DNA of 41,623 nt from Bacillota bacterium. Lineage in GTDB: Bacteria > Bacillota > Clostridia > Christensenellales > CAG-138. Shown here in pieces: positions 439-29,145 of the stretch. Positions within the stretch are counted from its first letter, which is position 1; the number at the start of each line of letters is the position of its first letter. The position numbers were made by a program, and so were the translations under genes. The notes under the pieces are model-generated. The model ran no database searches. It saw only the letters and a list, made by a program, of their open reading frames with translations, and was not told the origin of the DNA. The DNA is taken from positions 1 to 41,623 of the forward strand of contig JAEWMV010000154.1 of assembly GCA_023393045.1 (NCBI GenBank). The letters are read 5' to 3'.

Positions 439-3400
439 ATGACAAGCGAGGATAAAACTGTGTTCGATCCCGGTGTTGCCGTGTCCGATGGCAGCACAAC
501 CCTGCTTGACGCCGTCCTTTCCGATGCAGTAGCGCAAGGCGAGATTCCAGTCCCGACCGGCAATGCCGCCATTGTCAAGGGAGCGGCAATACTCGACACC
601 TACACCGTGGAAACCGACGCGATTGAGGGCGGTATGGGAAGCGTCTGGCGAGTCCATCACAAGGGCTGGAACGTAGACCTTGCCATGAAGCGCCCGCAGC
701 CTCAGTGCTTCTCCACCGATAAGAGCAAGGCAGATTTCATCCATGAGTGCGAGGCTTGGATAAACCTCGGCCTGCACCCGAATATCGTCTCCTGCTACTA
801 TGTCCGCGAGATCAGCGGCACTCCGACGATTTTCTCCGAATGGATGGACGGCGGAAGCCTTGGCGACGCGATAAAGAGTGGTGTTATTTATGAGAGCAAA
901 GAATCGGTGAGTACAGAGCGTATGCTCGATATAGCGATACAGTTTGCACGTGGCCTTCATTATGCGCATGAGGCTGGTCTCATTCATCAGGATGTTAAGC
1001 CGGATAATCTGCTGCTGACAAAAAACGGCGAAGCAAAAGTTGCGGACTTCGGCCTGGCAAAAGCGCGCGCTATTCTGACCGTCTTGGAGAACGACTCTGC
1101 AGCAGAGACTTCCAACAGCGGAAAAACTATCGTCTCACCTTCCGGCGGATATACCCCCGCTTACTGCTCTATAGAGCAGATGGACGGCAAGGAACTCACA
1201 CGAAGAACAGATATTTATTCATGGGCGGTCAGCGTTATGGAGCATTGTATCGGTTCCAGGCCGTGGGCTAATGGCGTTGTTGCAGGGTTGGGCTGCCGCG
1301 GTTACTTCGAAGATACGCGTATACCCATGCCGGAGGAGTTGCGAAAGTTGTTGGAGCGGTGTATGAGCGCCGAGCCTGACGACCGCCCGCACGACTTTGC
1401 GGATATTGAGGCAAAACTGCAAGAGATCTATCAGCTCGAAACCGGGAACTCATATCCGCGCCCCGAACCGAAGGCGGCGGCAGATACGGCGGAATCATTG
1501 AATAATATGGCGTTGTCCTATATGGATCTGGGACGCCCCGAAGAAGCGACTCGGCTTTGGGAGCAGGCGTTCACAGTCGACCCAGGCCACGTTGAAGCGA
1601 TATACAATCACACGCTTTATTCATGGCGCGCCGGGAAAATAATCGATGTTGAAGCGTTGAAAAGGATGCGCATCGCGCAAAGCGGTAATGCTTGTCAATA
1701 CGCGCAAGCGTTGCTGCACCTTGAACGCGGCGCCGGAGACGAGGCTATCGAGGCTTTGTCCGGGAGCAACAGAGATGCCGAAGTCACCGCTGTTGTTGAA
1801 GAAGCGCGTAAGGTCGGGCAGCCCGCCCTGCTTCAGACCCTTACCGGAAGCACATTGGCTCCGTTCAAGTATGACTATCCAACCGATAAAGGCGCACATA
1901 CGGTAAGCTTCAGCGATGACGGAACATATCTGTATGCAAGGGATCGTGCGAAGACAAAGGAGGACAGGTTCACATATCATAACGGGCATGTAAACCTGTG
2001 GAAGCGTACAAATGAAGGCTTTGTGCAGATACGTACGTCCGATCTGGAGCTCGGGCAGGTCAAGTGGAATATGCACATCTCTCTGAGAACAAAACTGAAT
2101 AAGCTGAAATATGGCATATCGGTCGCAAGCCCCGTTGTGAGAAACGGAGCATGGTATGTTCAGGATGAAATTGGACGCGTCCGTTATTCGCACGTATGGA
2201 GAGTTCCCGAAGACCGTGAATACCTCAGTATTGATACGTCGGCGTCGTTGAATAGACTCGCGTGCGGATGCGATATGAACACTGTTGATGTTTACACCCC
2301 GCCGCGGTTTGAGTACAAAGCCGCGTGGATGCTGTGCAAAGTGCGAGCACAAAACGAAGCGGTTGAAAGCGACGAGCTCTTCCGTGAATTGGCAGAGGAA
2401 GCCGCCCTCGCACTTGATAAGCGTGAAATCCAGACAGCCGCAGAATGCATCGCCGCCCTGCGTCCTTTACTTAATGCCGAGAATCAACATGAATACAGGC
2501 TTCTTAATGCCAGACTCGGAAAATACTGCGTGCCCAGCTCCCTGTTGACAATCTATCCGGATCCTCTTTGGGAGGCTCCGCCTCAGTCGCGATATGGGTT
2601 TTGCTCGGACGATCGGTTTGGCATCAACAGTTTTGATTGCTTTATGGATCGAGACAGCAACAAAATGCTGTGGAGCGATCCTCAGCGCTCCAAGATCCCG
2701 GAAGCGGTGCTCTCTCCAGATCAAAAAACCGTTGCATACAAAGCTGTGCAGGGCGGTAAATCCGCTGTTCAGCTCCGCAGTATCCTGACCAAAGATGTGA
2801 TATTCACTTATAAGCCAAATGAAAATGTTGGCTCTCTGCAGTTTCTTCCTGACGGGAGCGCAATCCTCGTAGCGCTTTGCGAGTCCATCAGCGCAGTCCT
2901 GATTGATTCTCGAAACGGAAAAGCGCTGCGGCATTACAAGGGAAGAAAGCCGCACATAACAGTTGATGTTTTCGTGCAAGTGAGTCCGAACGGAACGAGG
3001 TTTGCTTACGGCAGGATTGGAGATTCAAAGAGCGGCATGGGGGTTACTCATGAACCGCTGAGGTTTGCACGCATCAACGGAGATAAAGTGCTCGATACGA
3101 CAGAAACGTTGTCAACGTATTACGATTACATACGTGACGCACGGTTCTCACCGTATGATAGATGGTTTATGACTAAGCATTTTGACGGCTCTGTTCGCGT
3201 TTGGGATATTGAAAGGGGCGGAAATGACGTACAACGGTTTGACACAGAAGAAGACCTCATCACACTGATTAGCCGCGGGCATCTGGACTGGTGCTACGAG
3301 TTTCCCGGCTTCACAGACTGGGACGAGAACGCGAGGCCATATCTTGAGATATTCCTCGCGCTGCACCCGGACTGGAACGACGTCAACTTTGGTGAACTGA

Positions 3401-3519
3401 TAAACGAGCTTCAAAATCGTGGCCTTGGCTTTATTCGACCCGAGGGCGTGCGGTCGAAGCTGATGGAGATGCAGCCCAAGAAGAAAGGCCGCAGCGGCTT
3501 ATTCGGCAAAAGGATCTGA
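439..3519 (+). CDS. Hanks-type Ser/Thr protein kinase (non-RD, HQD) with a TPR-like linker, a WD40-like beta-propeller region and a 73-aa C-terminal tail. Cytosolic.
   Basis: GGGGAGG lies 8 nt upstream of the ATG. Kinase motifs: [19 protein letters not shown] (985-1008), VADFGLAKA, DIYSWAVSV. TPR-like: SLNNMALSYMDLGRPEEATRLWEQAF. WD40-like strands: HTVSFSDDGTYLYA, LSPDQKTVAYK, LQFLPDGSAILVA, VSPNGTRFAYG, FDGSVRVWDI. No long hydrophobic segment and no PASTA-like repeats. Confidence 0.85.
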   Translation: MTSEDKTVFDPGVAVSDGSTTLLDAVLSDAVAQGEIPVPTGNAAIVKGAAILDTYTVETDAIEGGMGSVWRVHHKGWNVDLAMKRPQPQCFSTDKSKADFIHECEAWINLGLHPNIVSCYYVREISGTPTIFSEWMDGGSLGDAIKSGVIYESKESVSTERMLDIAIQFARGLHYAHEAGLIHQDVKPDNLLLTKNGEAKVADFGLAKARAILTVLENDSAAETSNSGKTIVSPSGGYTPAYCSIEQMDGKELTRRTDIYSWAVSVMEHCIGSRPWANGVVAGLGCRGYFEDTRIPMPEELRKLLERCMSAEPDDRPHDFADIEAKLQEIYQLETGNSYPRPEPKAAADTAESLNNMALSYMDLGRPEEATRLWEQAFTVDPGHVEAIYNHTLYSWRAGKIIDVEALKRMRIAQSGNACQYAQALLHLERGAGDEAIEALSGSNRDAEVTAVVEEARKVGQPALLQTLTGSTLAPFKYDYPTDKGAHTVSFSDDGTYLYARDRAKTKEDRFTYHNGHVNLWKRTNEGFVQIRTSDLELGQVKWNMHISLRTKLNKLKYGISVASPVVRNGAWYVQDEIGRVRYSHVWRVPEDREYLSIDTSASLNRLACGCDMNTVDVYTPPRFEYKAAWMLCKVRAQNEAVESDELFRELAEEAALALDKREIQTAAECIAALRPLLNAENQHEYRLLNARLGKYCVPSSLLTIYPDPLWEAPPQSRYGFCSDDRFGINSFDCFMDRDSNKMLWSDPQRSKIPEAVLSPDQKTVAYKAVQGGKSAVQLRSILTKDVIFTYKPNENVGSLQFLPDGSAILVALCESISAVLIDSRNGKALRHYKGRKPHITVDVFVQVSPNGTRFAYGRIGDSKSGMGVTHEPLRFARINGDKVLDTTETLSTYYDYIRDARFSPYDRWFMTKHFDGSVRVWDIERGGNDVQRFDTEEDLITLISRGHLDWCYEFPGFTDWDENARPYLEIFLALHPDWNDVNFGELINELQNRGLGFIRPEGVRSKLMEMQPKKKGRSGLFGKRI

Positions 3520-3533
3520 GGGGAGAATTGAGC
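3301..3533 (+). repeat. Copy 2 of the duplicated tail-plus-junction segment
   Basis: See 206-438. Same order of tail codons, TGA, GGGGAG RBS and next ATG. Confidence 0.8.
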
Positions 3534-6500: not shown

Positions 6501-6953
6501 CCGGGCATGGATAAGAAGGTGTCAAAGCTTGCCAGATATCAAGTGACCGCCGATATGAAGACCGGGCTGGTTGGCGCGATCAAGGAACACCACTCCTTTT
6601 ACAGCATCAAGCCCGAGCTTCAGAAAGAACTGGATTCGTATGACGGCTGTCTGTTCCTATACTCGGCAAAGACGGGCAAGTTTATCAAGATGGTAAAGTT
6701 ATCCGCCGCCAATATCCATGTCCATCACGGTGGGTATTTCACCTGCGAGGGCGACGATGGCGTACTTTTATACCGTATTGCCGACTTTCTCGACACCGAC
6801 GAACCGAAGCCCGTGTTCATTCCGGTTCGGAATAGAATGTCCACTGTCAGTTTCAGCGCGGATATGCTGTACATGGCGATCGCCGTACCGCGTAACGCAC
6901 CCGCAGATGCAGGAGATACAGAAGTATTCTTGCTCGACTGGGAGCTGCAATAG
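3534..6953 (+). CDS. Paralogous non-RD Ser/Thr protein kinase with TPR-like and WD40-like regions. Lacks the C-terminal tail module.
   Basis: I prefer ATG 3534 (MANEDKTAF, parallel to MTSEDKTVF of the first kinase) over TTG 3528. Kinase motifs: [19 protein letters not shown] (4092-4115), VADFGISKA, DIYSWAVSV. WD40-like strands: LTLSVDHKWVCLPYDD, WSVRVFDMDS, IEFSDDNDYLFVGDNDGFFSVYSI, GHSGGFRLWDIEH. Ends ...FLLDWELQ*. Confidence 0.85.
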   Translation: MANEDKTAFDPGATVPESISTVPDGGTTLLDGGAPISGSIAPASRVIRKGDTLLDIYRVEIDAIESGGMGQVWRVHHTGWDVDLAMKRPRAEHFASEADKEVFTRECDAWINLGLHPNIVSCYYVRRIDDIPTIFSEWMDGGSLADAINGGGLYRANDDTARQERILDIAIQFARGLHYAHEMGLIHQDVKPDNVLLTNGGEAKVADFGISKARAVLTVLDGKETAAAGRTILSPSGGFTPAYCSIEQMDGKELTRRTDIYSWAVSVMEMYTGSRLWANGVVAGLSCRVYFEQTRIPMPEALKELLAQCMDAEPGNRPHDFAEVEARLHEIYKAETGTDYPRPAPKAAVDTADSLNNRALSMLDLGKLDEAEAILGDALAKDATAPDVVFNHAQLAWLRGRTDDSAALRALNSIAIERERNACLARLRTVIGPTDARESDRSIDRDKIARVIYDQKNERLLYCASRAAVNNKHRYALNVLGGGSDRRFELYDQHEPHRLTLSVDHKWVCLPYDDRIALCDVENGEYREIARVRTASAIAALNGDGVYLGKEDGVYHYEISTARTSLISYSPTVCRNITQSGDGKLLAWRIEQNKQWSVRVFDMDSRTFLFSRERTGEPYDIEFSDDNDYLFVGDNDGFFSVYSIPTGDTLLHMNSGQRFISICAVPGGRYVLTGHSGGFRLWDIEHRICRRTYTINWDKTVYPYPTRGEDGVLRIGTVTRDGVYSEYDLPDQEVRPVWEICVVTSAVVQLSRDELFRNAISDAEAAFGKGEYIAALSGLKEARAISGYATDERCLSLYEKIAPHFRLCGQPQLVSLRRLPRADEVSLSHNGSYIMDEETHEVYERLSGECLLAKDKMLNYKHTALIYGDRLACIYKTGEKEELTADIFQLPGGERVFTGCLCTGSGANDITPSILAWPDCELFTVRFPGFSFTRNVTVDSVSCTPMRPFIVQWEFKSEADQLTGSGLIAGMHDIRHISNGKRTVKYTPVPGMDKKVSKLARYQVTADMKTGLVGAIKEHHSFYSIKPELQKELDSYDGCLFLYSAKTGKFIKMVKLSAANIHVHHGGYFTCEGDDGVLLYRIADFLDTDEPKPVFIPVRNRMSTVSFSADMLYMAIAVPRNAPADAGDTEVFLLDWELQ

Positions 6954-6991
6954 TTCTCCGCGTTAAGCCATATTGTTAAGGAGGCAAAAAG

Positions 6992-9900
6992 ATGGACCTT
7001 TCCACATCCATGAAATTCGTAATGATGCGCGCGCAGTCAGAGGCCGCCGCAGCAAAGAAAAGTGAGGTCTCGCCGGAGCTGCTGTTTCTCGGTATATTGA
7101 AGCTTGCCGAAAAACGGGCCGAGGAGTTTGCGCCCACCTCGCGCCATAAGGCCGAGACCAACGCAGACATTGACGCAGTGAGGCAACAGTTTGCGCAGAA
7201 AAGCATCGATTCATCGCGTACACGAGGGTTGCTTCGCGCTGTCATTGCGGGTGGAGCCCACTTGGGCGGCGAGAAAGAACTGACGGAATGTCTGGTGCGG
7301 TCCGCGGATTTGGCGGGTAAGCGTGGCGAATCCGATCTCTGGGCACAGGATGTTCTCGCGGCGATTCTTGCCTGTCCCTCCGATGCGATATTGCAGGTTT
7401 GCCCGCTGAAAAAACAGGGCGCAGACAAGGCGGAAGACGCAAAGGACGAGCCGACGGGCGAAGCGAATGGGGCCGGAGAAAAGACCGACGAGATGAGCCG
7501 GGATTTCCTTCCCGCGCTGACAAGCCGTATCCGGCATATGCGCGCCAAACTGCTTTCCACCGTCCATGGTCAGGATCATGTGGTGCATGCCTTCACAGAG
7601 GGCATGTTTGCCGCAGAGGTCTTGGCCGCATCCGACGAGAAGCGCAAGCGGCCGCGCGCCATATTCGTGTTTGCGGGGCCTCCGGGCGTAGGCAAAACCT
7701 TCCTCGCCGAGCAGGCGGCGGAAGCGCTCGATATCCCCTTCAAGCGCTTCGATATGTCGAGTTTTTCTGACCATCAGTCCTACATGAGCCTCATTGGCTT
7801 TGAAAAGAGCTATCAGGGCGCAAAGCCGGGCACACTGACCGGCTTTGTCAAGAAGCAGCCCCACAGCATTTTGCTCTTTGACGAGATCGAGAAGGCGCAT
7901 TTGAACACGATACATTTATTTTTGCAGATCCTCGACGCGGGCAGGCTTGCCGACCGCTTTATGGATGAGGACATCTCTTTTAAGGACACCATCATCATAT
8001 TTACCAGCAATGCGGGGCGCTCGCTTTATGAGGGCGACGCCAGGCAGAACGCTGCGGGCGTACCGCGCAAGACGTTGATCAATGCGCTTGAGACTGAAAA
8101 GAACCCCCAGACCGGCCAGCCTTTCTTCCCCGCCGCCATCACCAGCCGTATGGCCACAGGATGGCCGCTGCTGTTCAACCATCTGCAGGCGCATCATCTT
8201 GATAAAATAAGCGGCGGTGAGCTTTCCCGCTTCTGTCAGCTTTTCGAGAAACAATACGGCATCGAGGCGGGCTTTGATGAGCTCGTTCCCACGGCACTGC
8301 TGTTTCAAGAGGGCGGCGCCGCAGATGCGCGCACGCTGCGCGCTCAAACCGAGCTGTTCTTCAAAAATGAGGTATTCAAGGTGTGCCGGCTCTGGGGGGA
8401 GGACAGGTTCTCCACCGCTCTTTCCGGCATAGAAAAGCTGCGTTTCACCGTAGAAACGGCCAAGCTCGCACAGGATGTACGCCCACTGTTCTTTTCGGAT
8501 GAGAAACCGGAGCTGCTTCTTTACGGCAGCCCGACATTTGCCGCGCGCTGCCGTGAAGAGCTGCCGGGGTATCTTATCTATGATACCCAGAGCGTAGAGG
8601 AAGCACTGACCATCGCCGGGGAAAAGGACGTCCGCGTCGTGTTGCTGGACGTCGCGGAGCGGAGCGTGCAGGACGCTGATGCGGGCTTTGTCACAATGGA
8701 GACTGTTTACGAAGGAGCACAGGAGCTTGTCATGTCAGCCGGAGCCTTCGACTTTGCACCCATGGCCGCGGGGGCGATCCACGATGGCAGCAGATTGTTC
8801 CGCTCGCTCAGGGAACGTCTGCCGGAGCTGCCTGTATATCTCTTGGAAACCGAGGAGTTCTCCATCGACGCCGAGCTGCTCATGAGTTTCGTCCGCGCGG
8901 GCGCGCGCGGCAAGCTGAAGGAGCCTGACGAGGATTTCTCCGTATTCGAGGATCAGCTTACCGCCATCTGCCGGGAGCTTTATATGCAGGGCGTCGCGGC
9001 TAAGATGGCCTCGGAGCGAAAGGTGCTGTACTTCGAGACCGCCCCCAAGCTCAGCCGGGACGGCAAGGAGATCATTGTGCGCCTGCGCGATTTCTCCCTG
9101 AAACGCGCCACCGAAGCCGACGACTCAAGCAGCGTGCTCGACGATGTGGAAAAGCCCAATATCCACTTTACGGATGTGATCGGCGCGGCGGACGCGAAGG
9201 AAGAATTAAAGTTTTTCATCGACTACCTGAAAAATCCAAAGAAGTTTTCCGCGCAGGGCCTAAAACCGCCTAAGGGCGTGCTTCTCTATGGTCCGCCGGG
9301 TACAGGAAAGACTATGCTTGCCAAAGCGATGGCCGGCGAAAGCGATGTTGCCTTCATCCCCGCCGTCGCAAGTGCGTTTGTCACCAAATGGCAGGGCAGC
9401 GGCCCAGAGGCTGTGCGGGAACTGTTCAAAAGGGCTCGCCGCTACGCTCCGGCCATCCTGTTCATCGACGAAATAGACGCAGTAGGCAGAAAGCGCGGTC
9501 AATCGAACACCTCTCATGGAGAGGAAATGGCATTGAACGCCCTTTTGACAGAGATGGATGGCTTCTCGGTCGACCCAAAGCGCCCTGTATTCGTGCTTGC
9601 CGCCACCAACTTCGATGTTGAAGAGGGTCAGGGCGGCATGGGCGTCATTGACCCGGCGCTTGCGCGGCGTTTTGACCGAAAGATACTGGTCGATTTGCCC
9701 AACGCCGACGAGCGGGAGCAGTTTGTGCGGCTGTATCTGAAAAAGAACAAGACGCATACCGTGACCGAGGAAATGATAAAACGACTTGCCTCACGCGCAA
9801 TTGGCATGAGCCCGGCGAACCTCGCCTCCGTGTTCGAACTCGCCAACCGAATGGCGGTCAAAGCCCAGAAACCTTTGGACGATGCGATACTGGACGAGGC

Positions 9901-10468
9901 CTACGAGCTCACTAAGCATGGCGCGAAAAAGGAATGGGGCTACGAATATCTTGAGCGCGTTGCCAGGCACGAAAGCGGACACGCTTTCCTCTGCTACCTC
10001 GGCGGCAATACGCCATCCTATCTCACCATTGTGGCGCGTGGCGGTCATGGCGGCTATATGGAGCACTCCGCAAAGGATATGGGGCCTCTATCCACCAAGG
10101 AAGAGCTGTTGAACCGTATCCGCACGAGTCTTGGGGGACGCGCGGCTGAACTCGCCTACTACGGCGAGAAGGACGGCGTATCCACCGGCGCGTCCGGAGA
10201 TCTTGAACAAGCCACCCGTGTGGCGCAGGCTATGATCTGTAATTACGGCATGGACGAGGATTTTGGCCTCGGCGTCATGGGGCAACAGGAGGCCGCAAAC
10301 AGCCCGGAGGTCAAAAAGCGTATCAACGAGATACTCGGCGAAGAGATGCGCAACACTGTGGAACTCATTAAGACCAACAAACATCGCATCGATCGCATGG
10401 TGGACGCGCTCATGAAGAAGAACAAGCTCTCCGGCGAGGAAATGGAGGAGCTGCTAAGGGATGATTAA
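6992..10468 (+). CDS. Single-chain fusion of a Clp_N double repeat, a ClpA/B-D2-like AAA+ module, a receiver-like middle segment and an FtsH-like AAA+ module with an M41 zinc metalloprotease. No transmembrane anchor.
   Basis: AAGGAGG RBS.
- N-terminus: two Clp_N-like repeats (VSPELLFLGILKLAE; LWAQDVLAAILACP).
- D2-like module: HGQDHVVHAF, Walker A GPPGVGKT (7676-7699), DMSSFSDHQSYMSLIGFEKSYQG, Walker B ILLFDEIEKAH, LQILDAGRL, IIIFTSN.
- FtsH-like module: Walker A GPPGTGKT (9290-9313), pore loop KWQG, ILFIDEIDAVGRKRG, ATNF...IDPALARRFDR.
- Protease: HEXXH = HESGH (9968-9982), GGRAAELAYYG, GASGDLEQATRVAQ.
- No hydrophobic N-terminal helices. Confidence 0.85.
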   Translation: MDLSTSMKFVMMRAQSEAAAAKKSEVSPELLFLGILKLAEKRAEEFAPTSRHKAETNADIDAVRQQFAQKSIDSSRTRGLLRAVIAGGAHLGGEKELTECLVRSADLAGKRGESDLWAQDVLAAILACPSDAILQVCPLKKQGADKAEDAKDEPTGEANGAGEKTDEMSRDFLPALTSRIRHMRAKLLSTVHGQDHVVHAFTEGMFAAEVLAASDEKRKRPRAIFVFAGPPGVGKTFLAEQAAEALDIPFKRFDMSSFSDHQSYMSLIGFEKSYQGAKPGTLTGFVKKQPHSILLFDEIEKAHLNTIHLFLQILDAGRLADRFMDEDISFKDTIIIFTSNAGRSLYEGDARQNAAGVPRKTLINALETEKNPQTGQPFFPAAITSRMATGWPLLFNHLQAHHLDKISGGELSRFCQLFEKQYGIEAGFDELVPTALLFQEGGAADARTLRAQTELFFKNEVFKVCRLWGEDRFSTALSGIEKLRFTVETAKLAQDVRPLFFSDEKPELLLYGSPTFAARCREELPGYLIYDTQSVEEALTIAGEKDVRVVLLDVAERSVQDADAGFVTMETVYEGAQELVMSAGAFDFAPMAAGAIHDGSRLFRSLRERLPELPVYLLETEEFSIDAELLMSFVRAGARGKLKEPDEDFSVFEDQLTAICRELYMQGVAAKMASERKVLYFETAPKLSRDGKEIIVRLRDFSLKRATEADDSSSVLDDVEKPNIHFTDVIGAADAKEELKFFIDYLKNPKKFSAQGLKPPKGVLLYGPPGTGKTMLAKAMAGESDVAFIPAVASAFVTKWQGSGPEAVRELFKRARRYAPAILFIDEIDAVGRKRGQSNTSHGEEMALNALLTEMDGFSVDPKRPVFVLAATNFDVEEGQGGMGVIDPALARRFDRKILVDLPNADEREQFVRLYLKKNKTHTVTEEMIKRLASRAIGMSPANLASVFELANRMAVKAQKPLDDAILDEAYELTKHGAKKEWGYEYLERVARHESGHAFLCYLGGNTPSYLTIVARGGHGGYMEHSAKDMGPLSTKEELLNRIRTSLGGRAAELAYYGEKDGVSTGASGDLEQATRVAQAMICNYGMDEDFGLGVMGQQEAANSPEVKKRINEILGEEMRNTVELIKTNKHRIDRMVDALMKKNKLSGEEMEELLRDD

Positions 10469-10544
10469 GCTGCAACTTTAGCGGTAAGCGCGGCTGCGGA
10501 GATGTAGTACCATCCATGTATAGAGTACATAAGGAGGAACGAGT

Positions 10545-11510
10545 ATGAAACGGATATCAGCGGTATTACTCATCATCACGCTTATCGCTGCACTGACCGC
10601 CTGCACCAAGGCGCCAGCCGCAGGCAAAGAAGGATCGCCTTATCAAAATGTGCCGGCTTTATCGGCGGGCGACGATTTCAAGCTGGGGGATGAGACCTAT
10701 GCTCTTGAAAAATGGGTAACCTTGCCGGAGTATGACACGGATACCAAGATCGGCTATGGCCTTTGCTTCGTGCAAAAGGAGGGGATTGCGCCCATCGCTA
10801 TATCCGGCAGCAATTACACGAGCCTCATTGACATGAAGCTGGACATGGACGACGGCACTCTTGCCACCAGCAATATCAGCTTTATCGCTGTGGACGATGC
10901 GCCGGGCTATGCCGCCCGAGTGACATTTGAATTCGCCCTGCCCAAAGCTGCGGCTTTGCCTGAGAGCGGAACGATCTTCCACACGGGAGCGGACAAGGAG
11001 GAAAGAATAGATCTCTCCGCATTGGAGACCCCGGCGGGAGCGCCGTCGGCACCGCAGGAACAGTCTCAGCCCGCGGTAATGCCCGCTGACGATTATGAGG
11101 CCAAGAAACTGGCCGGCGAATGGTTGCTCACCGCCATCACCTTCCGTACCCCGGAGACGGATAACGGCATATTCAGCATGGATGCCACCATGGAAATATC
11201 CGAGGGCTTTGAATATGGACGAAACCTATCACTTCGAAACGATATGACTTTGATTGGTCTCATCGACCTGTCCGCGCTGATCGACGCTGTGAACGAGCTG
11301 CCCTTCAGCGTCACCGACCTCGATTTTAAGGACTACTCCGGCTGGGAGTATACAAACGGAGTCGTAACGCTCACTAAAAGCGGCCCCGAGCTCGCGGCGA
11401 GCTATGATGAAGCAAGCGAAGAATTGCGCCTTACCTGGAGCGGAACGGTACAGATCGATCCGGCCGGCGAGGTGTTGATGGATATAACAATGGTCTTCAA
11501 GGCCAAATAA
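10545..11510 (+). CDS. Lipoprotein of unknown function
   Basis: AAGGAGG RBS. Signal peptide with lipobox MKRISAVLLIITLIAALTAC. I recognise no catalytic motif. Confidence 0.7.
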   Translation: MKRISAVLLIITLIAALTACTKAPAAGKEGSPYQNVPALSAGDDFKLGDETYALEKWVTLPEYDTDTKIGYGLCFVQKEGIAPIAISGSNYTSLIDMKLDMDDGTLATSNISFIAVDDAPGYAARVTFEFALPKAAALPESGTIFHTGADKEERIDLSALETPAGAPSAPQEQSQPAVMPADDYEAKKLAGEWLLTAITFRTPETDNGIFSMDATMEISEGFEYGRNLSLRNDMTLIGLIDLSALIDAVNELPFSVTDLDFKDYSGWEYTNGVVTLTKSGPELAASYDEASEELRLTWSGTVQIDPAGEVLMDITMVFKAK

Positions 11511-11528
11511 TTTATGGAGGGAAACAAA

Positions 11529-13409
11529 ATGAAACGGATACTTGCAGCATTGCTGATCGTCGCGCTGGTCGCTTCGTTGGCTGCTTGCGCGGCAAAGCCC
11601 ACTGCGCCGCCGGAGTCCGAACCTACGCCCGAGTCAATCGTCGAGTTCAACGACCCCCTGCTGGAGGAGCTTGTTCGCAAGGCTATGAACAAGCCGGACG
11701 GCGATATCACACTTGCCGAGGCGGAGGCGGTCACGGAGCTGGAGCTCGGCATCGACTGGCAGCAGGAACCGGCTCCGAACTCGCAGATCAAGGACATTTC
11801 CGGCTTGGAGAATTTCAAAAACCTCGAAAACCTTAATCTGAATTTCCACGCAATAGAGGACATATCGCCGCTCTCCGGGCTTACTAAGCTCCGCTCCCTG
11901 TCGCTGGGCGGAAATCCGGTAGCCGATATAGCGCCGCTTTCGAACCTCACCGGGCTTGGTTCTCTGACGCTGTTCAACTGTCAGGCGAAGGACTATACCC
12001 CGCTTTCAAAGCTGAGCGGCCTGGGTATGCTGCTGCTGGAGTATTCAACGATAAGCGATGTGAGTATGCTCTCCGGGCTTACGGAGCTTTGGTGGCTTAG
12101 CCTTGCAACCACGCAGGTAAGCGACGTCTCCCCCCTGTCGACACTCGTTAATCTCAGGCAGTTGCAGTTAGCGGGATGCCCTATCACCGATTACTCGCCT
12201 CTGGCCGAGATATACCCGAATCTTGAAGAAAAAGACTTCGAGATACCTTCCAAGCTGATGGACATATTCAGCGCCGAGTTCAATCCTTATGGCATGGACA
12301 GTCCGGCGACCGTGTTTGAGGCGTCCTTCAACAAGAGTCCGGACAACGCTCAGTTCGTGCTCTCCATGACAGGCAGCGGGAATATGTACGCCTGCGTAGC
12401 CTATCAGGCGGACGCTGCGGGGCTCTCCGAGGAGGAGAAGCAAGAGCGCATCAATGAATACCTTGAGGGCGGCTTCTGCCAGATCCGCGGCACAGACGGC
12501 CGCGTCGTGGATATCAAACGGGCTATACCCGAGGATGACCGCTACGAGTATGTGGAGGCGGACGGTCAGCACGGGCAGAACGGAGCGGGCTGCGTTATCG
12601 ACGTTACATATTTCATAGACGATGCCAACATCGAGAGGTACACTCAACTCGTGCGGGACAATTACAGCGTGGACGCGCTTGCGCCCATTGCAGATTTCTT
12701 TGATACGAATACCGATTTTGCTGAGTGTGGCATAACTGTAAACGTCTATAAGGATGAAGCCCATGCCTATGTCGTTTATCGTCTACCCGACGTAAACGCT
12801 GTGATGCAGGAAATGCAGGGAGGCGGCGATGCTCCGTGGTGGGAGTGGAACGGTATGACGCAGACAGCCATGATGTATGACGGCGTGGACAGCAAGCTGA
12901 CCTTCGACACCGAGGGCGGAGCCATAACCGTCGATCAGCTTCACGCAGAGCTCAGCGCACAGCCCGCCGCCGAGGGCTCGCTTAGCGCTATGGGTTTCGG
13001 CTTTGATGATGCGGGCGTATGCGGCGTATACGAGGATCGCATGCCGCACTATAAGTCCGTCGCAATAGCAAGACCGGAATGGGGCGAACACCCCGACGGC
13101 TGGAACATCGAGTTCATGGACACCGATATTAAGGGTTACAGCCTGCGTATCGAGTATCACGCCGAAGACGGCAGGTATCATATATCGCTGGATAAAGACG
13201 GCGAGAGCTGCTCCTATGACTACTATCGCGAAAAGGATCAATACGGCTGGGAACACCCCGACATTGAGACCGTGCACAGGATGTTCGGGGACGCCTTTGA
13301 TTCTGAGGGCAAAGAGCTGTATTACCCCGCGCTTGCGCACTTTGAGCAGTTTGTACAGGAGCACTTCGGCATGAGCGTTGACGAGCTGTACGCGGCTCCG
13401 AAGCAATAA
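11529..13409 (+). CDS. Leucine-rich-repeat (internalin-like) lipoprotein with an unknown C-terminal domain
   Basis: I prefer ATG 11529 (GGAGGG 7 nt upstream) over 11514. Lipobox MKRILAALLIVALVASLAAC. About 22-aa LRR units run across ~11790-12215 (LENLNLNFHAIEDISPLSGLTKLRSLSLGGNPVADIAPLSNLTGLGSLTL...VSDVSPLSTLVNLRQLQLAGCPITDYSPL). Confidence 0.75.
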   Translation: MKRILAALLIVALVASLAACAAKPTAPPESEPTPESIVEFNDPLLEELVRKAMNKPDGDITLAEAEAVTELELGIDWQQEPAPNSQIKDISGLENFKNLENLNLNFHAIEDISPLSGLTKLRSLSLGGNPVADIAPLSNLTGLGSLTLFNCQAKDYTPLSKLSGLGMLLLEYSTISDVSMLSGLTELWWLSLATTQVSDVSPLSTLVNLRQLQLAGCPITDYSPLAEIYPNLEEKDFEIPSKLMDIFSAEFNPYGMDSPATVFEASFNKSPDNAQFVLSMTGSGNMYACVAYQADAAGLSEEEKQERINEYLEGGFCQIRGTDGRVVDIKRAIPEDDRYEYVEADGQHGQNGAGCVIDVTYFIDDANIERYTQLVRDNYSVDALAPIADFFDTNTDFAECGITVNVYKDEAHAYVVYRLPDVNAVMQEMQGGGDAPWWEWNGMTQTAMMYDGVDSKLTFDTEGGAITVDQLHAELSAQPAAEGSLSAMGFGFDDAGVCGVYEDRMPHYKSVAIARPEWGEHPDGWNIEFMDTDIKGYSLRIEYHAEDGRYHISLDKDGESCSYDYYREKDQYGWEHPDIETVHRMFGDAFDSEGKELYYPALAHFEQFVQEHFGMSVDELYAAPKQ

Positions 13410-13435
13410 GCACCAAGCACTGCAACTTTCTCCGG

Positions 13436-13502
13436 AAACGCTCGCTTCATCGCGTGTTACGCTGTGAATATAAAGCAACCACGTTGTGTTGCGAGCGTTT
13501 TT
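13436..13502 (+). terminator. Possible terminator or structured element: 10-bp stem enclosing a 45-nt loop with sub-hairpins, then a T-run
   Basis: aaacgctcgc (13436-13445) pairs with gcgagcgttt (13491-13500), followed by tt. The loop contains gcgt-gtt-acgc and caac-cac-gttg mini-stems. The loop is atypically long for a terminator. Confidence 0.3.
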
Positions 13503-13515
13503 GGAGGTGCTTTGG

Positions 13516-14397
13516 ATGATATACATTACTGGCGACACCCACGCGGATTTTTCAAGGCTGTATCGGGTTCCATTCTCTCACGTCGAGGAGTGGGAGCAAG
13601 GTACAGATCCGCATTATGTGATTATTTGCGGCGATTTTGGCGGTGTGTGGAACGAAAGCATGCAGCAGGCCGCAGAACTCGACAAGCTGAACGACAGGCC
13701 GTTTACCATATTGTTTTTAGATGGCAATCATGAGAACTATGATCTGCTTGCCACCTATCCTGTGGAGAACTGGCACGGCGGCAAGGTACAGGCAATACGT
13801 AAGAACGTGCTGCATCTCATGCGGGGACAGATATACGAGATCGAAGGGCAGACGTTCTTCATCATGGGCGGCGCGGCCTGCCATGACACTTATAACGGCG
13901 TGCTGGATATGGACGATCCTGAATTCACGCAAAAGTACCAACGCCTCAAAAACGCGCGCAAGTTCTTTCGTATCAATCATCTAAGCTGGTGGGAGCAGGA
14001 ACTTCCCACCGAGAGCGAGATCAGCGCGGCATATGAAACGCTCTGCGCATACGGAAAAAAGGTGGATTATGTGCTCAGCCACTGCGCGCCAAGTAAAATG
14101 CAAAGGCGAATCCAAGCCAGGATCGGCGACAGTACCCATCCAAAGAACGCGCTGACAGAGTTCCTGCAATGGGTGTACAACGAGTGTGAATTCAAGCACT
14201 GGTACTGCGGGCATTATCATCAACCAAGGGATATAACGCGCTGCTTTCATGTGGTATATGAGAACATTGTACGGTTGGATGGTGATATGCAAGCTTCCGA
14301 CGATGAAGTTGAGTCAAGAAATGAGGACTTTCTTGATAGGATAAGGGCGTTACTCTCACAGAACAGTAAAACCACTGGTGGTAACTGCCGATTATAG
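13516..14397 (+). CDS. Calcineurin-like metallophosphoesterase (possible protein phosphatase)
   Basis: I prefer ATG 13516 (GGAGG at 13503-13507) over GTG 13486. Metallophosphatase motifs appear in order: ITGDTHAD, ICGDFGG, LDGNHENY, GGAACHD, SHCAP, GHYH. Confidence 0.8.
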   Translation: MIYITGDTHADFSRLYRVPFSHVEEWEQGTDPHYVIICGDFGGVWNESMQQAAELDKLNDRPFTILFLDGNHENYDLLATYPVENWHGGKVQAIRKNVLHLMRGQIYEIEGQTFFIMGGAACHDTYNGVLDMDDPEFTQKYQRLKNARKFFRINHLSWWEQELPTESEISAAYETLCAYGKKVDYVLSHCAPSKMQRRIQARIGDSTHPKNALTEFLQWVYNECEFKHWYCGHYHQPRDITRCFHVVYENIVRLDGDMQASDDEVESRNEDFLDRIRALLSQNSKTTGGNCRL

Positions 14398-14429
14398 TCG
14401 ACAATCTGAAGCAGACAAGGAGGATGACC

Positions 14430-15380
14430 ATGAAAGACAAACTGAATAATGGCATCCTTTATGTCGGCCAAACCTCTGATACTACAGCTGCTGACAGGAA
14501 CGCTTCCGGTGAGGATCCTAACCGGAAGCGATATATCCAGTTACGGCGAATCGAATCAGAGCCACCGTTTGATGTATTTAAGGTTAGGGATACCTTGAGC
14601 GGAAGTTATGCCACCATGATGTGTCTGGACGGCAAAAGCAAACACGATAATGACGCAAAGATGCGCTTGCATAAGCGAGGCATCAACAGCGTTTATGCAG
14701 CTAATAGTGATAAGATATCGCAAAACATCGTCCAATGGAATACTCCAACACGCCATGGTCATGATGCTCTATTCCTTTTGACCGAGCAACCGTATGGTCG
14801 AAGTCTGTCAAAATGGCATAAACTGCATCCGATTTCGGACGAGGCCACGGCGTTGCTTCTCATTGGTCAACTGTTGAATGCTCTTGACGCAGTACACTCC
14901 GTTGGAATGCTAATTACTGAGAAGAATCCATCAGAAACAGAACAGCGTACATCGCTGGTGCATCGTTCGGTAGGGCCAGACAGCATTCGAATCGTTGAGT
15001 GCGACGACAAGCTTACTTTACTATTAGATAACTTCGAGAATGCAATTCCGGTTCAGACACCTGCTGACAATCAGTTTTGTGGAACTGCCGCATTTTCACC
15101 ACGGCAGCAGCTTCTCGATGCTCGACATCCTCACCCTGCATGGGATGTATGGGCGGCCGCTGCATGCCTATACTATCTCCTCACGGGCAAATTTCCGCGA
15201 GAGTTTTCGGAAAACCGATGGAAATGCTTGGCGGAGAACAAACCTATTCCTTTGCTTGAACGACGCTCTGACATATCGCCAAGACTTGCAGCAGTGATCG
15301 ATCTCGCGCTGGATGACACGAATGGTTTGCATTATCAAACAGCCGACGCTCTTCGAAAAGCACTGCATTCAGTAATGTGA
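14430..15380 (+). CDS. Protein-kinase-fold protein with degenerate catalytic motifs (predicted pseudokinase)
   Basis: AAGGAGG abuts ATG 14424, so ATG 14430 is the better-spaced start. Kinase-like C-lobe: LVHRSVGPDSIRI (14961-) in place of HRDxKPxN, LLDNFENA in place of DFG, FCGTAAFSPRQ, DVWAAAACLYYLLTGKFP. There is no glycine-rich loop (ESEPPFDVF) and no beta3 lysine (YATMMCL). Confidence 0.7.
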   Translation: MKDKLNNGILYVGQTSDTTAADRNASGEDPNRKRYIQLRRIESEPPFDVFKVRDTLSGSYATMMCLDGKSKHDNDAKMRLHKRGINSVYAANSDKISQNIVQWNTPTRHGHDALFLLTEQPYGRSLSKWHKLHPISDEATALLLIGQLLNALDAVHSVGMLITEKNPSETEQRTSLVHRSVGPDSIRIVECDDKLTLLLDNFENAIPVQTPADNQFCGTAAFSPRQQLLDARHPHPAWDVWAAAACLYYLLTGKFPREFSENRWKCLAENKPIPLLERRSDISPRLAAVIDLALDDTNGLHYQTADALRKALHSVM

Positions 15381-15410: not shown

Positions 15411-15451
15411 GGTGTAGCAGTAAATCAGACTGCTGCACCTTCGTTGTTTTT
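15411..15451 (+). terminator. Rho-independent terminator after the pseudokinase gene
   Basis: ggtgtagcag / ctgctgcacc forms a stem (one mismatch) with a 9-nt loop, followed by ttcgttgttttt. Confidence 0.7.
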
Positions 15452-16161: not shown

Positions 16162-17553
16162 ATGGCGACAATCGTAAAACGGGGTAAGAAGTATTCCGTT
16201 GTCTATTACTACACAGATGAAAACGGTGAACAACAGCAGAAATGGGAACCACCGGTTAGTTCGAAAAAGGAAGCTTTGAAAAGAAAAAACGAGATTGAAC
16301 ATGAAATGGATACCGGCGTGTTCATTCCGCCGGCTCGTGTCAAGGTAGGAGAGTTCATGTGCGACTTTGTGGAGATGTATGGTACAAAGCGATGGGGGTT
16401 ATCAGTATACTCGTCCAACACATCGCTAATCCAGAACTACATAAACCCACTGTTGTCAGATCACTTGGTGCAGGATGTTAATGCAAGGACGGTTGACTGG
16501 TTCATACATCAACTGCAAAAAACCAAACCCGTCAGTACGCCTTACCGGCATGCAAAAACGGAGTTCATCACACCTTGCACGATTGAGAAAATAGCCAAGC
16601 TCATGCGCACGGCCTTTAAGCAGGCTGTGCGATGGGGTATGATCGGCAAGAATCCGTTTGAAGGAGCTGTTCTGCCAAAAGCGGAAAAGAGAAAACGCGC
16701 GATCTGGGACGCTGTTACGATACGAAAGGCGTTGGATGAATGCGAGGACGGAAAGCTGTATGTCGCACTGAACCTGGCATTTGCATGTTCGTTGAGACTT
16801 GGAGAGATCACGGGATTGACATGGGATTGTCTCAGCATTACAGATAGCGCCATCGCAAATGACGACGCATACCTGTCAGTAGAAAAAGAGTTGGCTCGCG
16901 TTGATCAAAAAGCGATAGACGCTGTCGGAAAGGGCGATATACTCTATGTCTTTCCTCGCCTCATGGGAGGCAAGTCAAGCACCAGACTCGTACTAAAGAA
17001 GCCTAAAACGGAATCGAGCGTTAGGAGAGTTTGGATACCCAAGACACTCGCGTTGATTCTGAGAGAATGGCAAGCGAAGCAAACTGCGCTTAAAGAGTTT
17101 ATGGGAGAGGACTACATTGACTACAACCTGGTGCTTGCCCAGGAAACCGGGCGTCCGTGCGAGGATAGGATTATCGGCAACGCATTTGATAGGTTGAAAA
17201 AGAAAGCGGAACTCCCCAATGTGGTTTTCCATTCGCTGCGGCATTCCAGCACAACGTATAAGCTGAAACTCAACCACGGCGATGTTAAGGCAACGCAAGG
17301 CGATACAGGACATGCACAGCCGGATATGGTAACTGAGGTATATGCGCACATTCTCGATGAAGATCGAAAGATCAACGCACAGAAGTTTGAAATGGCTTTC
17401 TATGCTAACCCTGATATGAGAAAAGCAGAGGCTTCCATCCAAAACGCTTCGCCGCAGCCGCCCGCCTTGGATCTTGGCTTGCTGGTGCAGCAGCTAAAGG
17501 AGCAGCCTGAGCTGGCCACCACGCTCGCAGCGCTCTTGAAGGGAATCGCATAA
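16162..17553 (+). CDS. int: Tyrosine-type site-specific integrase
   Basis: N-terminal SAM-like/arm-binding region (MATIVKRGKKYSVVYYY). Catalytic region with LRLGEITGLTW (Arg), HSLRHSSTT (H-x-x-R) and GHAQPDMVTEVYAHI (His...Tyr). Lies beside a tRNA gene. Confidence 0.9.
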   Translation: MATIVKRGKKYSVVYYYTDENGEQQQKWEPPVSSKKEALKRKNEIEHEMDTGVFIPPARVKVGEFMCDFVEMYGTKRWGLSVYSSNTSLIQNYINPLLSDHLVQDVNARTVDWFIHQLQKTKPVSTPYRHAKTEFITPCTIEKIAKLMRTAFKQAVRWGMIGKNPFEGAVLPKAEKRKRAIWDAVTIRKALDECEDGKLYVALNLAFACSLRLGEITGLTWDCLSITDSAIANDDAYLSVEKELARVDQKAIDAVGKGDILYVFPRLMGGKSSTRLVLKKPKTESSVRRVWIPKTLALILREWQAKQTALKEFMGEDYIDYNLVLAQETGRPCEDRIIGNAFDRLKKKAELPNVVFHSLRHSSTTYKLKLNHGDVKATQGDTGHAQPDMVTEVYAHILDEDRKINAQKFEMAFYANPDMRKAEASIQNASPQPPALDLGLLVQQLKEQPELATTLAALLKGIA

Positions 17554-17748: not shown

Positions 17749-17825
17749 TGGCACCCCCGAGCAGGCTCGAACTGCTGGCGTTCCGCTTAGGAGGCGGACC
17801 CTCTATCCATCTGAGGTACGGGGGC
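17749..17825 (-). tRNA. tRNA-Arg (anticodon CCU), 77 nt with encoded CCA
   Basis: Minus strand reads GCCCCCG-TA-CCTC-AGATGGATA-GAGG-G-TCCGC-CTCCTAA-GCGGA-ACGCC-AGCAG-TTCGAGC-CTGCT-CGGGGGT-G-CCA. This folds by hand into a full cloverleaf with a TTCGA T-loop. Confidence 0.9.
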
Positions 17826-24066: not shown

Positions 24067-24186
24067 CCGCAGAAATATCGCAAATTAATCACGCCCCGCC
24101 ACTTCCGCTTGCCCGCGCAATATGGTATACTACACCAAATAAAATTATTTGAACCAAACAAATTTTTAGGGAAGGGCGGGCGAAGT

Positions 24187-25884: not shown

Positions 25885-25965
25885 TTGCATCGCCCATTGG
25901 GCGGTAACCGTTTGATAGATTCCCGCGCCACAGTACGGCGCAAGCGCATATAAAGGAGGAAGCCT

Positions 25966-28251: not shown

Positions 28252-28263
28252 GGAGGTATTGCC

Positions 28264-29145
28264 ATGTACGATATGAAGGCTTTATATGAGGCGACGAGCG
28301 TTGGGCACGCCGTTGCCCTGCTTCTGGAACACCCGGAGGCAAAGATCATCGCGGGCGGAAGCGACGTGCTCGTGCAGATGCGTGAGGGGCGGCTTGCGGG
28401 CCGCGAGCTCGTGAGCATTTATAAGCTCGACGAGCTGCGCGGCGTTACGCTTGAGGCGGACGGCGCCATGCGCATACGCCCGGTGACGAGCTTTTCCCAC
28501 ATTGCAAAAGACCCCGTGGTCAACGCGCATGTGAAGGTGCTCGCCGAGGCCGTGGACAAGGTGGGCGGGCCGCAGGTACGTAACATCGGCACCATAGGCG
28601 GCAACATCTCAAACGGCGTGACGAGCGCGGACTCCGCCTCGACCCTTGTCGCCTACGATGCCATCGTGGAGGTCACGGGGCCGGAGGGTATCCGCCTCAT
28701 CCCCATCGGCGAATGGTACACAGGCCCCGGAAAGGTCGCCCTCAGGCCCGCGGAGCTTTGCACGGCCATCCTCATCAAAAAGGAAAGCTACGAGGGCTAC
28801 TTCGGCCACTACATCAAATACGCCATGCGAAACGCCATGGACATCGCCACGCTCGGCTGCTCCGTGAACGTGAAGCTTTCTCCCGATAAAAAGAGCATTG
28901 CGGACGCGCGCATCGCCTACGGCGTGGCGGGCCCCGTGCCCATGCGCGCGAAGAGCGCGGAAGCGGCGGCAAAGGGCAAGCCCGTATCGAACGAAACGGT
29001 GGAGGCTTTCGCCAAAGCCGCGCTCAACGACGTGAACCCAAGGACGAGTTGGCGCGCGACGAAGGAATTTCGTTTGCACCTCGTGGAGGAGCTTGCGCGG
29101 CGCGCCTTTATTGAATCCATCCGACTTGCGGGAGGTGAGCTCTGA
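28264..29145 (+). CDS. xdhB: Xanthine dehydrogenase family, FAD-binding subunit
   Basis: IIAGGSDVLVQM and NIGTIGGNISNG are FAD-binding (CO-dehydrogenase flavoprotein-type) motifs. Confidence 0.8.
   Translation: MYDMKALYEATSVGHAVALLLEHPEAKIIAGGSDVLVQMREGRLAGRELVSIYKLDELRGVTLEADGAMRIRPVTSFSHIAKDPVVNAHVKVLAEAVDKVGGPQVRNIGTIGGNISNGVTSADSASTLVAYDAIVEVTGPEGIRLIPIGEWYTGPGKVALRPAELCTAILIKKESYEGYFGHYIKYAMRNAMDIATLGCSVNVKLSPDKKSIADARIAYGVAGPVPMRAKSAEAAAKGKPVSNETVEAFAKAALNDVNPRTSWRATKEFRLHLVEELARRAFIESIRLAGGEL

Follow-up and report, generated by a model that had tools for sequence, protein, structure and literature searches.

The window analyzed here, the whole stretch of 41,623 nucleotides (nt) from the Bacillota bacterium contig JAEWMV010000154.1 (assembly GCA_023393045.1; Christensenellales, CAG-138), encodes a 1158-amino-acid (aa) protein that joins a Clp_N-like N-domain, a Clp-type D2 motor, a receiver-fold domain and the cytosolic part of an FtsH protease in a single chain. 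We propose, with a probability of about 0.55, that this protein is a cytosolic, self-compartmentalizing, two-tier AAA+ metalloprotease that serves as the degradative output of the kinase/phosphatase module surrounding it. An earlier note on this DNA, made from its letters and predicted open reading frames (ORFs), had outlined the domains of the protein. It missed the most informative fact about the family, which is a conserved and partly covalent link to protein kinases.

Domain architecture and conservation

The FtsH part of the protein was recognized directly by Pfam AAA (aa 763-901, E=3.7e-49) and Peptidase_M41 (aa 988-1154, E=1.8e-28). The C-terminal 440 aa cover the complete cytosolic part of FtsH, with 237 bits to the T. 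thermophilus enzyme (PDB 2dhr/4eiw) and 182 bits, in one stretch, to its isolated AAA domain (1ixz). Walker A (GPPGTGKT, aa 767-774), Walker B (aa 823-829; FIDEIDAVGRKRG, aa 824-836) and a second region of homology reading D-P-A-L-A-R892-R893-F are all present, and the protease carries HESGH (aa 993-997) and GASGDL (aa 1066-1071). The pore loop is K-W800-Q-G (aa 799-802), and the homolog alignment reveals an insertion, NFDVEEGQGGMGVID, relative to FtsH. The earlier note had named the Walker, pore-loop and protease motifs, described the pore loop as Vps4/katanin-like, and placed before the FtsH part a Clp-D2-type ATPase with intact Walker A and Walker B; every motif that it quoted lies where it had been placed in the ORF, and the domain assignments built on them agree with the profile matches.

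The D2-type ATPase was found by Pfam AAA_2 at aa 221-352 (E=2.3e-33). It has Walker A (GPPGVGKT, aa 229-236), Walker B (aa 294-299, within LLFDEIEKAH at aa 294-303), a pore loop S-Y274-Q-G, the sensor-1 residue N340, R386 and a sensor-2-like D-A-R447. We take R386 to be the Arg finger and R447 to be sensor-2 because they resemble the FxPxxxxR and xAR motifs of ClpB. The NCBIfam models for ClpA, ClpB and ClpV1, as well as the PDB chains of ClpE, ClpA, ClpC, ClpB, Hsp104 and Skd3, align through their D2 portion only. The identity of the N-terminal part had been fixed beforehand as a test of the proposed architecture, and profiles and structure models do assign its ~470 aa to Clp_N and AAA_2.

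As had been claimed from the letters alone, the protein lacks a hydrophobic anchor, and it is predicted to be soluble. The two N-terminal transmembrane helices that flank a periplasmic domain in FtsH were not found, either by hydropathy scan or in the alignment to the NCBIfam FtsH profile. This profile (FtsH_fam, TIGR01241) scored 349.5 bits, below its curated cutoff of 600, and aligned only from position 153 to 597 of 598, which means that the transmembrane and periplasmic part is missing. The Kyte-Doolittle maximum over 19 residues was 1.78 at aa 121-139 (VLAAILACPSDAILQVCPL), and every other segment reached at most 1.31. We rejected this peak as a transmembrane helix: Pro, Ser and Asp occur in it, and it maps to a pair of short helices within the globular N-domain, which is modeled with confidence (pLDDT >90).

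A search space of 5.8 billion proteins yielded more than 120 clusters at 63-92% identity that aligned over their full length and in which the junction region is highly conserved. Their lengths are nearly all 1130-1215 aa, with one truncated entry of 992 aa. A scan of one genome per species located 47 loci. Clostridial carriers belong to Christensenellales, Lachnospiraceae, Oscillospiraceae, Peptococcaceae and Syntrophomonas, and members at 50-57% identity occur in the Planctomycetes-Verrucomicrobia-Chlamydiae (PVC) bacteria Victivallales, Lentisphaeria, Opitutaceae and Kiritimatiellota. Two isolate genomes, Lachnospiraceae NE2001 and Syntrophaceticus schinkii Sp3, carry a family member. The gene is therefore one ORF and not two, as isolates and separately assembled genomes share the architecture. 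The family-specific middle domain alone retrieved 170 representatives of 50%-identity clusters.

Residue conservation was assessed in 84 distant full-length representatives (at least 1000 aa; clusters sharing less than 50% identity). The two ATPases keep their Walker A and Walker B motifs, the sensor-1 Asn, R386/R447 and R892/R893 at 92-100%, and the protease keeps HEXXH, E1053 and D1070 within the same range. Within this set, GPPGTGKT, DEID, R892 and R893 reach at least 95%, and HEXXH, E1053 and D1070 reach 94-95%, the remainder being gaps. The pore-loop aromatics are kept at 89% and 76%. Such conservation of catalytic residues indicates that both motors and the protease are under selection, and it is thus very probable, judging from these residues, that the protein is an active two-motor protease.

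Single-sequence searches were insufficient for the N-domain and the middle region, where family profiles and structure prediction were required. When the single sequence was used, Clp_N stayed below the Pfam threshold and covered half a repeat (E=0.036 and 0.019), and phmmer of the N-domain against the PDB returned noise only. A profile built from 28 family N-domains, by comparison, matched the S. aureus ClpC N-domain with E=5e-12 and about 45 more Clp N-domains, and Pfam Clp_N was detected in 8 of the 28 members (best E 3e-8). The AlphaFold model (pLDDT 88) consists of eight helices, and its top 50 Foldseek matches in the PDB were essentially all ClpC, ClpB or ClpA N-domains (TM score to target 0.6-0.7). 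The profile and the fold together bear out the Clp_N double repeat that had been proposed for aa ~1-140. Four residues, R13, K37, R78 and R82, do not vary among 65 homologs and thereby suggest a ligand site. E29, likewise invariant, takes the place of the Glu in the GTEH motif of ClpC; the motif of the second Clp_N repeat is weakly conserved.

In about 10 loci the tblastn match begins only at aa ~140-183. Loss of the N-domain in these loci was considered and rejected, since the ORFs called in five of them (L043, L044, L045, L047, L054) are ~1150-1200 aa long. The N-termini of other distant relatives look Clp_N-like, and the N-domain of these ~10 loci has probably diverged rather than disappeared.

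Between the two motors lies a domain that the earlier note had called, as its weakest assignment, a CheY-type receiver. A Pfam search of aa 318-720 gave no domain match and no Response_reg (PF00072). The AlphaFold model of aa 465-720 (pLDDT 85.8) has a (βα)5 core, with an insertion of ~35 aa after β3 (aa 554-588) that is of low confidence or disordered. Almost all of its top 50 Foldseek matches were response-regulator receivers (E 2e-5 to 1e-3, TM score to target 0.7-0.8), including the receiver (REC)-AAA+ proteins NtrX, NtrC1 and LuxO and the ClpXP adaptor RssB. The receiver fold thus stood, and D553, T620 and K641 are indeed present in this ORF. What did not hold is the family-wide retention of the last two. 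D553, at the phospho-acceptor position, is Asp in 80% and Glu in 8% of the representatives, and no other polar residue is conserved in the domain. T620 and K641 are kept in 23% and 18%, respectively; being so poorly conserved, they were rejected as the β4 threonine and β5 lysine and are not treated as functional. The acidic pair of β1 is absent, and the β1 loop across relatives is G/A/S followed by a variable residue. On these residues the domain reads as a pseudo-receiver.

The otherwise variable insertion of the pseudo-receiver ends in GAFDFAPMAAG (aa 582-594; nt 8735-8773), next to D553. This motif is strongly kept in close homologs and is not conserved above 70% among distant representatives. 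In the numbering of the model, to which 464 must be added for protein numbering, the connector that follows the (βα)5 core comprises a helix of 26 residues (186-211) and two strands (213-223 and 229-241).

Public annotations of the family read only "AAA family ATPase" or "ATP-dependent metalloprotease FtsH". The architecture, which had not been recognized as described when it was first noticed, was not described in anything retrieved by full-text literature searches, with the limit that a mention in the 2012 paper on Ter systems cannot be excluded. We conclude that the heterotypic AAA+ protease architecture, with its conserved kinase partnership, appears to be new and undescribed, and that its component domain types were already known.

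Kinase partnership and genomic setting

In the window, two Hanks-type kinase genes lie directly upstream of the protease gene on the same strand, and only 38 nt separate the second from it. The two kinases are 61% identical over their first ~420 aa (kinase and tetratricopeptide repeat (TPR) part), and their tails of ~600 aa cannot be aligned. A shared catalytic part with unrelated tails is, at the level of sequence, the pattern expected of diversifying sensor domains. A remnant of a third kinase occupies positions 6-421. One frame encodes part of a catalytic loop (HQDVKPDN), with 78% identity to kinase 2; after it, another frame encodes a fragment 79% identical to the extreme C-terminus of kinase 1. 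The arrangement suggests that tandem kinase paralogs have recombined or that an internal deletion has occurred.

The same company is kept in other genomes. We scored the 41 species-level loci that have at least 3 kb of upstream sequence. A homologous large kinase lies within 4.5 kb of the protease gene in 27 of them, PP2C is present in 20 and an FHA-kinase in 19; kinase and PP2C occur jointly in 20 of the 41. Assuming a handful of Hanks kinases per Clostridial genome, which is a rough assumption, adjacency to a kinase would be expected by chance in ~1% of cases. A recurrent order was found on independent contigs: a helix-turn-helix or unassigned protein of ~500 aa, the FHA-kinase, PP2C, one to three large kinases and the protease, in some cases followed by more kinases, a leucine-rich-repeat (LRR) protein and a phosphoesterase. 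The number of such kinase paralogs per locus ranges from one to five.

In part of the family the kinase and the protease are one polypeptide. Among the 150 middle-domain representatives listed, 21 are at least 1400 aa long, and at least 11 of these carry an N-terminal protein kinase. These fusions, of 1554-2126 aa, run from Pkinase, with or without a β-propeller, through AAA_2, the middle domain and AAA to M41. All of them lack the Clp_N-like domain, whereas it is retained by 30 of the 84 representatives with a length of 1000 aa or more, so that the kinase occupies the position of Clp_N. The fusions are the strongest evidence that kinase and protease may act together physically. Taken with the neighborhoods, they make a functional coupling of the protease to the kinases probable.

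In five loci (L005, L010, L023, L028, L033) a Ter cluster with TerD paralogs, PRTase_2/TRSP, StiP/PELOTA, HAD, ATP-grasp and C-C lyase genes lies directly upstream. The protease gene of L005 is placed between an Endonuclease_NS_2 gene and a gene for a 1889-aa RHS/YD-shell protein. Divergent members of the family adjoin vWA genes with MIDAS motifs, a YbjN protein and a calcineurin-like phosphatase. Two further observations concern divergent loci. Beside the divergent family member of L044 lies a gene (2411-6919) for a 1503-aa kinase protein whose C-terminal region resembles a Card1-type endonuclease domain weakly and below threshold (E=0.0034; 17.4 bits, cutoff 26.4). Both L044 and L045 also encode membrane proteins in which a TrkA-N-like Rossmann part occurs together with the motif HxRWNAYMRSEG.

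Downstream of the protease gene, the window continues with lipoprotein, phosphoesterase and kinase-like genes (Table 1). Homologs of the LRR protein lie just 3' of the protease gene in six other loci (L007, L008, L019, L024, L035, L041, by tblastn). It is an exported protein in an otherwise cytosolic signaling operon. In 8 of the 41 scored loci a calcineurin-like phosphoesterase gene is found no more than 10 kb from the protease gene, and homologs also occur in L003, L007, L008 and L014. The 318-aa kinase-like protein falls just under the Pfam Pkinase cutoff; with the kinase portion of FHA-kinases encoded elsewhere in the family's loci it shares 30-38% identity. No PP2C, FHA-kinase, TerD or TerY is visible in the window. 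The first two may lie upstream of position 1, or may be replaced here by the pair of phosphoesterase and kinase-like protein.

The module appears to be carried on an integrative island in this genome. This follows from its GC content, 0.47-0.57 before ~19 kb versus ~0.6 beyond, from the integrase/tRNA-Arg edge and from the housekeeping genes past it (MFS transporter, RadC, phosphoglucomutase, MatE transporter, adenine deaminase, xanthine dehydrogenase subunits and GlmS). The window holds one end of the island, the other lying outside it. The adenine deaminase gene and the cluster of xanthine-dehydrogenase-type genes (for the molybdopterin-binding and FAD-binding subunits) at 24109-29630 are outside the island, belong to ordinary purine catabolism and are unrelated to the protease.

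Table 1. Features of the protease gene and its surroundings. Positions are those of the window unless another locus is named; aa numbers refer to the protease.
Feature	Position	Strand	Basis and remarks
Ser/Thr kinase 1, 1026 aa; kinase, TPR and β-propeller-like tail	439..3519	+	Pfam Pkinase 3.5e-31; TPR and β-propeller matches; HQDVKPDN, DFG
Ser/Thr kinase 2, 1141 aa	3528..6953	+	Pfam Pkinase 2e-31; β-propeller matches
Ribosome-binding site GGAGG	6980..6984	+	7 nt 5' of the protease ATG; read directly from the sequence
Protease ORF, 1158 aa	6992..10468	+	Single uninterrupted frame; ATG start
Clp_N-like double-repeat N-domain, aa 1-140, 8 helices	6992..7411	+	Family profile, AlphaFold, Foldseek
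Variable, charged, disordered linker, aa 141-167	7412..7492	+	pLDDT <50 at model residues 144-160; length and sequence differ among homologs
Clp/Hsp100 D2-type AAA+ module, aa 168-470	7493..8401	+	Pfam AAA_2, NCBIfam and PDB matches
Pseudo-receiver, CheY-like (βα)5, aa 471-650	8402..8941	+	AlphaFold and Foldseek; β3 Asp D553
Connector, long helix and β-hairpin, aa 651-717	8942..9142	+	AlphaFold model of aa 465-720
FtsH-type classical-clade AAA, aa 718-965	9143..9886	+	Pfam AAA, FtsH_fam
M41 zinc metalloprotease and stop codon, aa 966-1158	9887..10468	+	Peptidase_M41; HESGH 993-997, E1053, D1070
Two lipoprotein genes, 321 aa and 631 aa (leucine-rich repeats)	10545..13409	+	Lipobox signal peptides; LRR_4 5e-19
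Calcineurin-like phosphoesterase (303 aa) and kinase-like protein (318 aa)	13486..15380	+	Pfam, tblastn
Strongest plus-strand terminator-like hairpin	15411..15439	+	11-bp stem, 6 GC pairs, T-rich tail; closes same-strand block 439-15380
Tyrosine integrase	16162..17553	+	Pfam Phage_integrase
tRNA-Arg(CCT)	17749..17825	-	ARAGORN; adjoins the integrase
Ter-type cluster with Endonuclease_NS_2 and RHS/YD-shell genes, locus L005	757-9972 and 16278-21947		
Ter-type cluster, locus L010	200-7371		

Proposed mechanism and alternative explanations

From this architecture and its partners we infer a scheme that extends to the geometry of the hexamer, the phosphorylation target, the part played by the receiver, what is degraded and to what biological end. 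A ring, presumably a hexamer as in FtsH, would be built from the M41 and AAA modules. The flexibly tethered Clp_N-like domain would dock the neighboring large kinases or proteins phosphorylated by them. The D2-type ring, placed above the FtsH-like hexamer, would grip the substrate by its Tyr pore loop and begin unfolding, and the FtsH-type ring would then thread the chain into the zinc-protease chamber. The pseudo-receiver could be an on/off switch that controls whether the FtsH-type ring assembles or is coupled, in the manner of receivers in NtrC-type REC-AAA+ proteins; the kinases would set this switch, and PP2C or the calcineurin-like phosphatase would reset it. Finally, the trigger would be sensed by the TPR/β-propeller tails, which vary among the kinase paralogs. 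To the switch role of the pseudo-receiver we would give less than even odds.

The biological role is most likely a response to conflict or stress, and possibly an anti-phage one. Location on an island, diversifying tails, a patchy spread across phyla and the Ter, vWA, nuclease and RHS neighborhoods all point in this direction. To a defense role as such we would give somewhat less than even odds. It is doubtful, but conceivable, that the family forms a so far unrecognized class of bacterial AAA+ protease, in which a soluble double ring of a D2 (HCLR-clade) and a classical-clade motor, switched by a pseudo-receiver, would be the executioner of a Hanks-kinase immune or signaling pathway. Sensor-tail kinases would there detect an invader or a stress, and phosphorylation would license processive destruction of specific proteins. 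This would amount to bacterial proteolysis directed by phosphorylation and built on Hanks kinases instead of arginine kinases.

Several results weigh against the proposed two-tier, kinase-controlled protease. By homology, 11 of the 41 loci have no kinase, PP2C or Ter markers, some of them having vWA genes or divergent kinases. The two heterologous rings are ~250 aa apart and may not stack coaxially. Since the pseudo-receiver lacks the acidic pair, Thr and Lys, its classical phosphorylation on Asp appears unlikely, and no conserved Ser/Thr acceptor was identified in the domain. Sequenced plasmids and phages yielded no member of the family; the matches obtained there were at the level of Clp D2 only, with at most 42% query coverage. 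PADLOC recognized no defense system adjacent to the gene in the window.

The matches that PADLOC did return were to single modules: IetA at aa 710-973, DolB and PDC-M37B at aa 163-346, PD-T4-6 and mad6 on the kinase domains, and also TRIP13. No IetS or DolA-type partner was found by Pfam among the neighbors in the window. Identity with a known system of the database (Ietas, Dodola, PDC-M37, PD-T4-6 or MADS) was rejected for these reasons.

The kinases could act on the substrates instead of on the protease. In such a phospho-degron mechanism, which would resemble that of McsB/YwlE/ClpC, they would tag host or invader targets with phosphoserine or phosphothreonine, the Clp_N-like domain would recognize the tag and the pseudo-receiver would be structural. 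The N-domain profile matches best to ClpC N-domains, including a phospho-arginine-bound entry (5hbn), the invariant E29 and basic residues fit a tag reader, and the operon supplies a kinase, a phosphatase and a phosphothreonine reader, FHA. However, the kinase-fused relatives lack Clp_N, so that a tag reader is not essential to the family, and the motif of the second Clp_N repeat is poorly conserved. We also know of no Clp_N domain that binds phosphoserine or phosphothreonine. We consider this mechanism unlikely.

General proteostasis is improbable for the family. The protein would here be a mobile, soluble disaggregase-protease, comparable to the ClpG/ClpK and FtsH paralogs of heat-resistance islands, and the kinases would be incidental or would act in transcription only. 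The location on a genomic island, the relationship of the D2 module to the disaggregases ClpB, ClpG and ClpK and to the single-D2 Skd3, and the intactness of both motors and of the protease are compatible with it. Nevertheless, the surroundings of the gene in the window contain neither small heat-shock genes nor other genes of proteostasis. Signaling genes are the neighbors in 27 of 41 loci, and at least 11 representatives have a kinase as part of the same polypeptide. The embedding of a regulatory receiver-fold domain is not what a general disaggregase would lead one to expect.

There is a slim chance that the protein is mainly a remodeler or assembly chaperone, which would unfold kinase/β-propeller complexes and thereby reset the pathway, with proteolysis being secondary or limited to autoprocessing. 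AAA+ proteins in conflict systems are often proposed to be assembly or disassembly chaperones (Kaur et al., 2020; PMC7159879), and fusion to a kinase implies intimate contact. The near-complete retention of the zinc site and its downstream Glu and Asp even in distant members argues, on the other hand, that proteolysis itself has been selected for. A chimeric assembly or a hidden frameshift joining a Clp-like and an FtsH-like gene, finally, has a practically negligible probability and was rejected, given more than 120 independent end-to-end clusters of ~1150 aa, 47 species-level genomes including isolates and a confidently folded junction domain.

The usual pairing of the protease with Hanks-type kinase, FHA and PP2C genes, together with the fusions, makes directly testable a long-suspected link in bacteria between Ser/Thr phosphorylation and regulated proteolysis. 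Should the system prove defensive, bacterial immunity would gain a logic of kinase sensor and protease effector. For AAA+ mechanics, a natural heterotypic stack of an HCLR-clade on a classical-clade motor would be an unusual test case for coupling between rings. The carriers include many gut and anaerobic Clostridia in addition to PVC bacteria.

Relation to known systems

A predicted conflict system and a stress-response system come close to the neighborhoods described here. In Kaur et al. (2020; PMC7159879), the FtsH component of the MoxR-vWA ternary systems has two FtsH-type AAA domains, the first of them inactive, and is linked to MoxR, vWA and ubiquitin-like ligase proteins. Our family likewise has a non-housekeeping FtsH-type AAA+ in a predicted conflict setting, and vWA genes beside its divergent members. 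Its first ATPase, in contrast, is D2-type and intact, and its partners are Ser/Thr kinases, FHA and PP2C. Identity with the FtsH ternary-system protein was therefore rejected. The TerY-P/Ter clusters (Anantharaman et al., 2012, as summarized in PMC10542128) share kinase, PP2C and vWA themes, and the TerD/PRTase/PELOTA/HAD adjacency is seen in the five loci mentioned above. The window has kinases and a calcineurin-like phosphoesterase, and neither TerY nor TerD nor PP2C is visible in it.

The pseudo-receiver has its counterparts in NtrC1, NtrX and LuxO, with which it shares the fold, the long linker helix and the position directly N-terminal to an AAA+ ring, and in RssB, with which it shares the fold. 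In regulators of the NtrC1/NtrX/LuxO type and in RssB, the receiver controls ring assembly or substrate delivery. Here, however, the acidic pair is missing, Thr and Lys are not conserved, a 35-aa insertion is present, no histidine kinase is nearby, and the AAA+ is a classical-clade unfoldase rather than a σ54 activator.

Skd3 (human CLPB) resembles the N-terminal half in having an interaction domain followed by a single ClpB-D2-like ATPase (sequence E ~1e-19). It differs in that its interaction domain is made of ankyrin repeats and in that it has neither a second ATPase nor a protease. With ClpC, ClpA and ClpB the protein shares the Clp_N double repeat and a D2-type AAA+ with a Tyr pore loop, whereas D1 and the middle domain of those proteins are absent, as only D2 is matched by models and PDB chains. 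No ClpP-docking IG[FL] loop lies between sensor-1 (aa 340) and R386, the sole IGF (aa 268-270) being the pore-loop motif. Unlike in ClpCP, the proteolytic part is a metalloprotease and belongs to the same chain as the motors. The N-domain of ClpC docks McsB, MecA and phospho-arginine substrates, and the McsB-YwlE-ClpCP pathway of phospho-arginine degradation is reported to consist of a kinase, a phosphatase and a Clp_N-bearing unfoldase-protease. The same logic of kinase, phosphatase and unfoldase-protease is seen here, with Hanks-type Ser/Thr kinases in place of arginine kinases.

The closest relative of the degradative half is FtsH, with which the protein shares the classical-clade AAA, the second region of homology, HEXXH and the downstream Glu and Asp. 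Canonical FtsH has the pore loop M-F-V-G and the Arg-finger motif R-P-G-R-F. Here these read K-[YW]-Q-G and A-R-R-F, both of Vps4/katanin type; the insertion NFDVEEGQGGMGVID is added, the transmembrane/periplasmic part is gone, the score to the FtsH profile is 349.5 bits against the 600 required, and 717 aa of extra domains precede the AAA. Bacterial energy-dependent proteolysis is usually taught as five machines, namely ClpXP/ClpAP/ClpCP, HslUV, Lon, FtsH and the proteasome. To these the family described here would add a sixth layout, that of a soluble FtsH derivative with a captured Clp recognition domain, a D2 motor and a receiver-fold switch.

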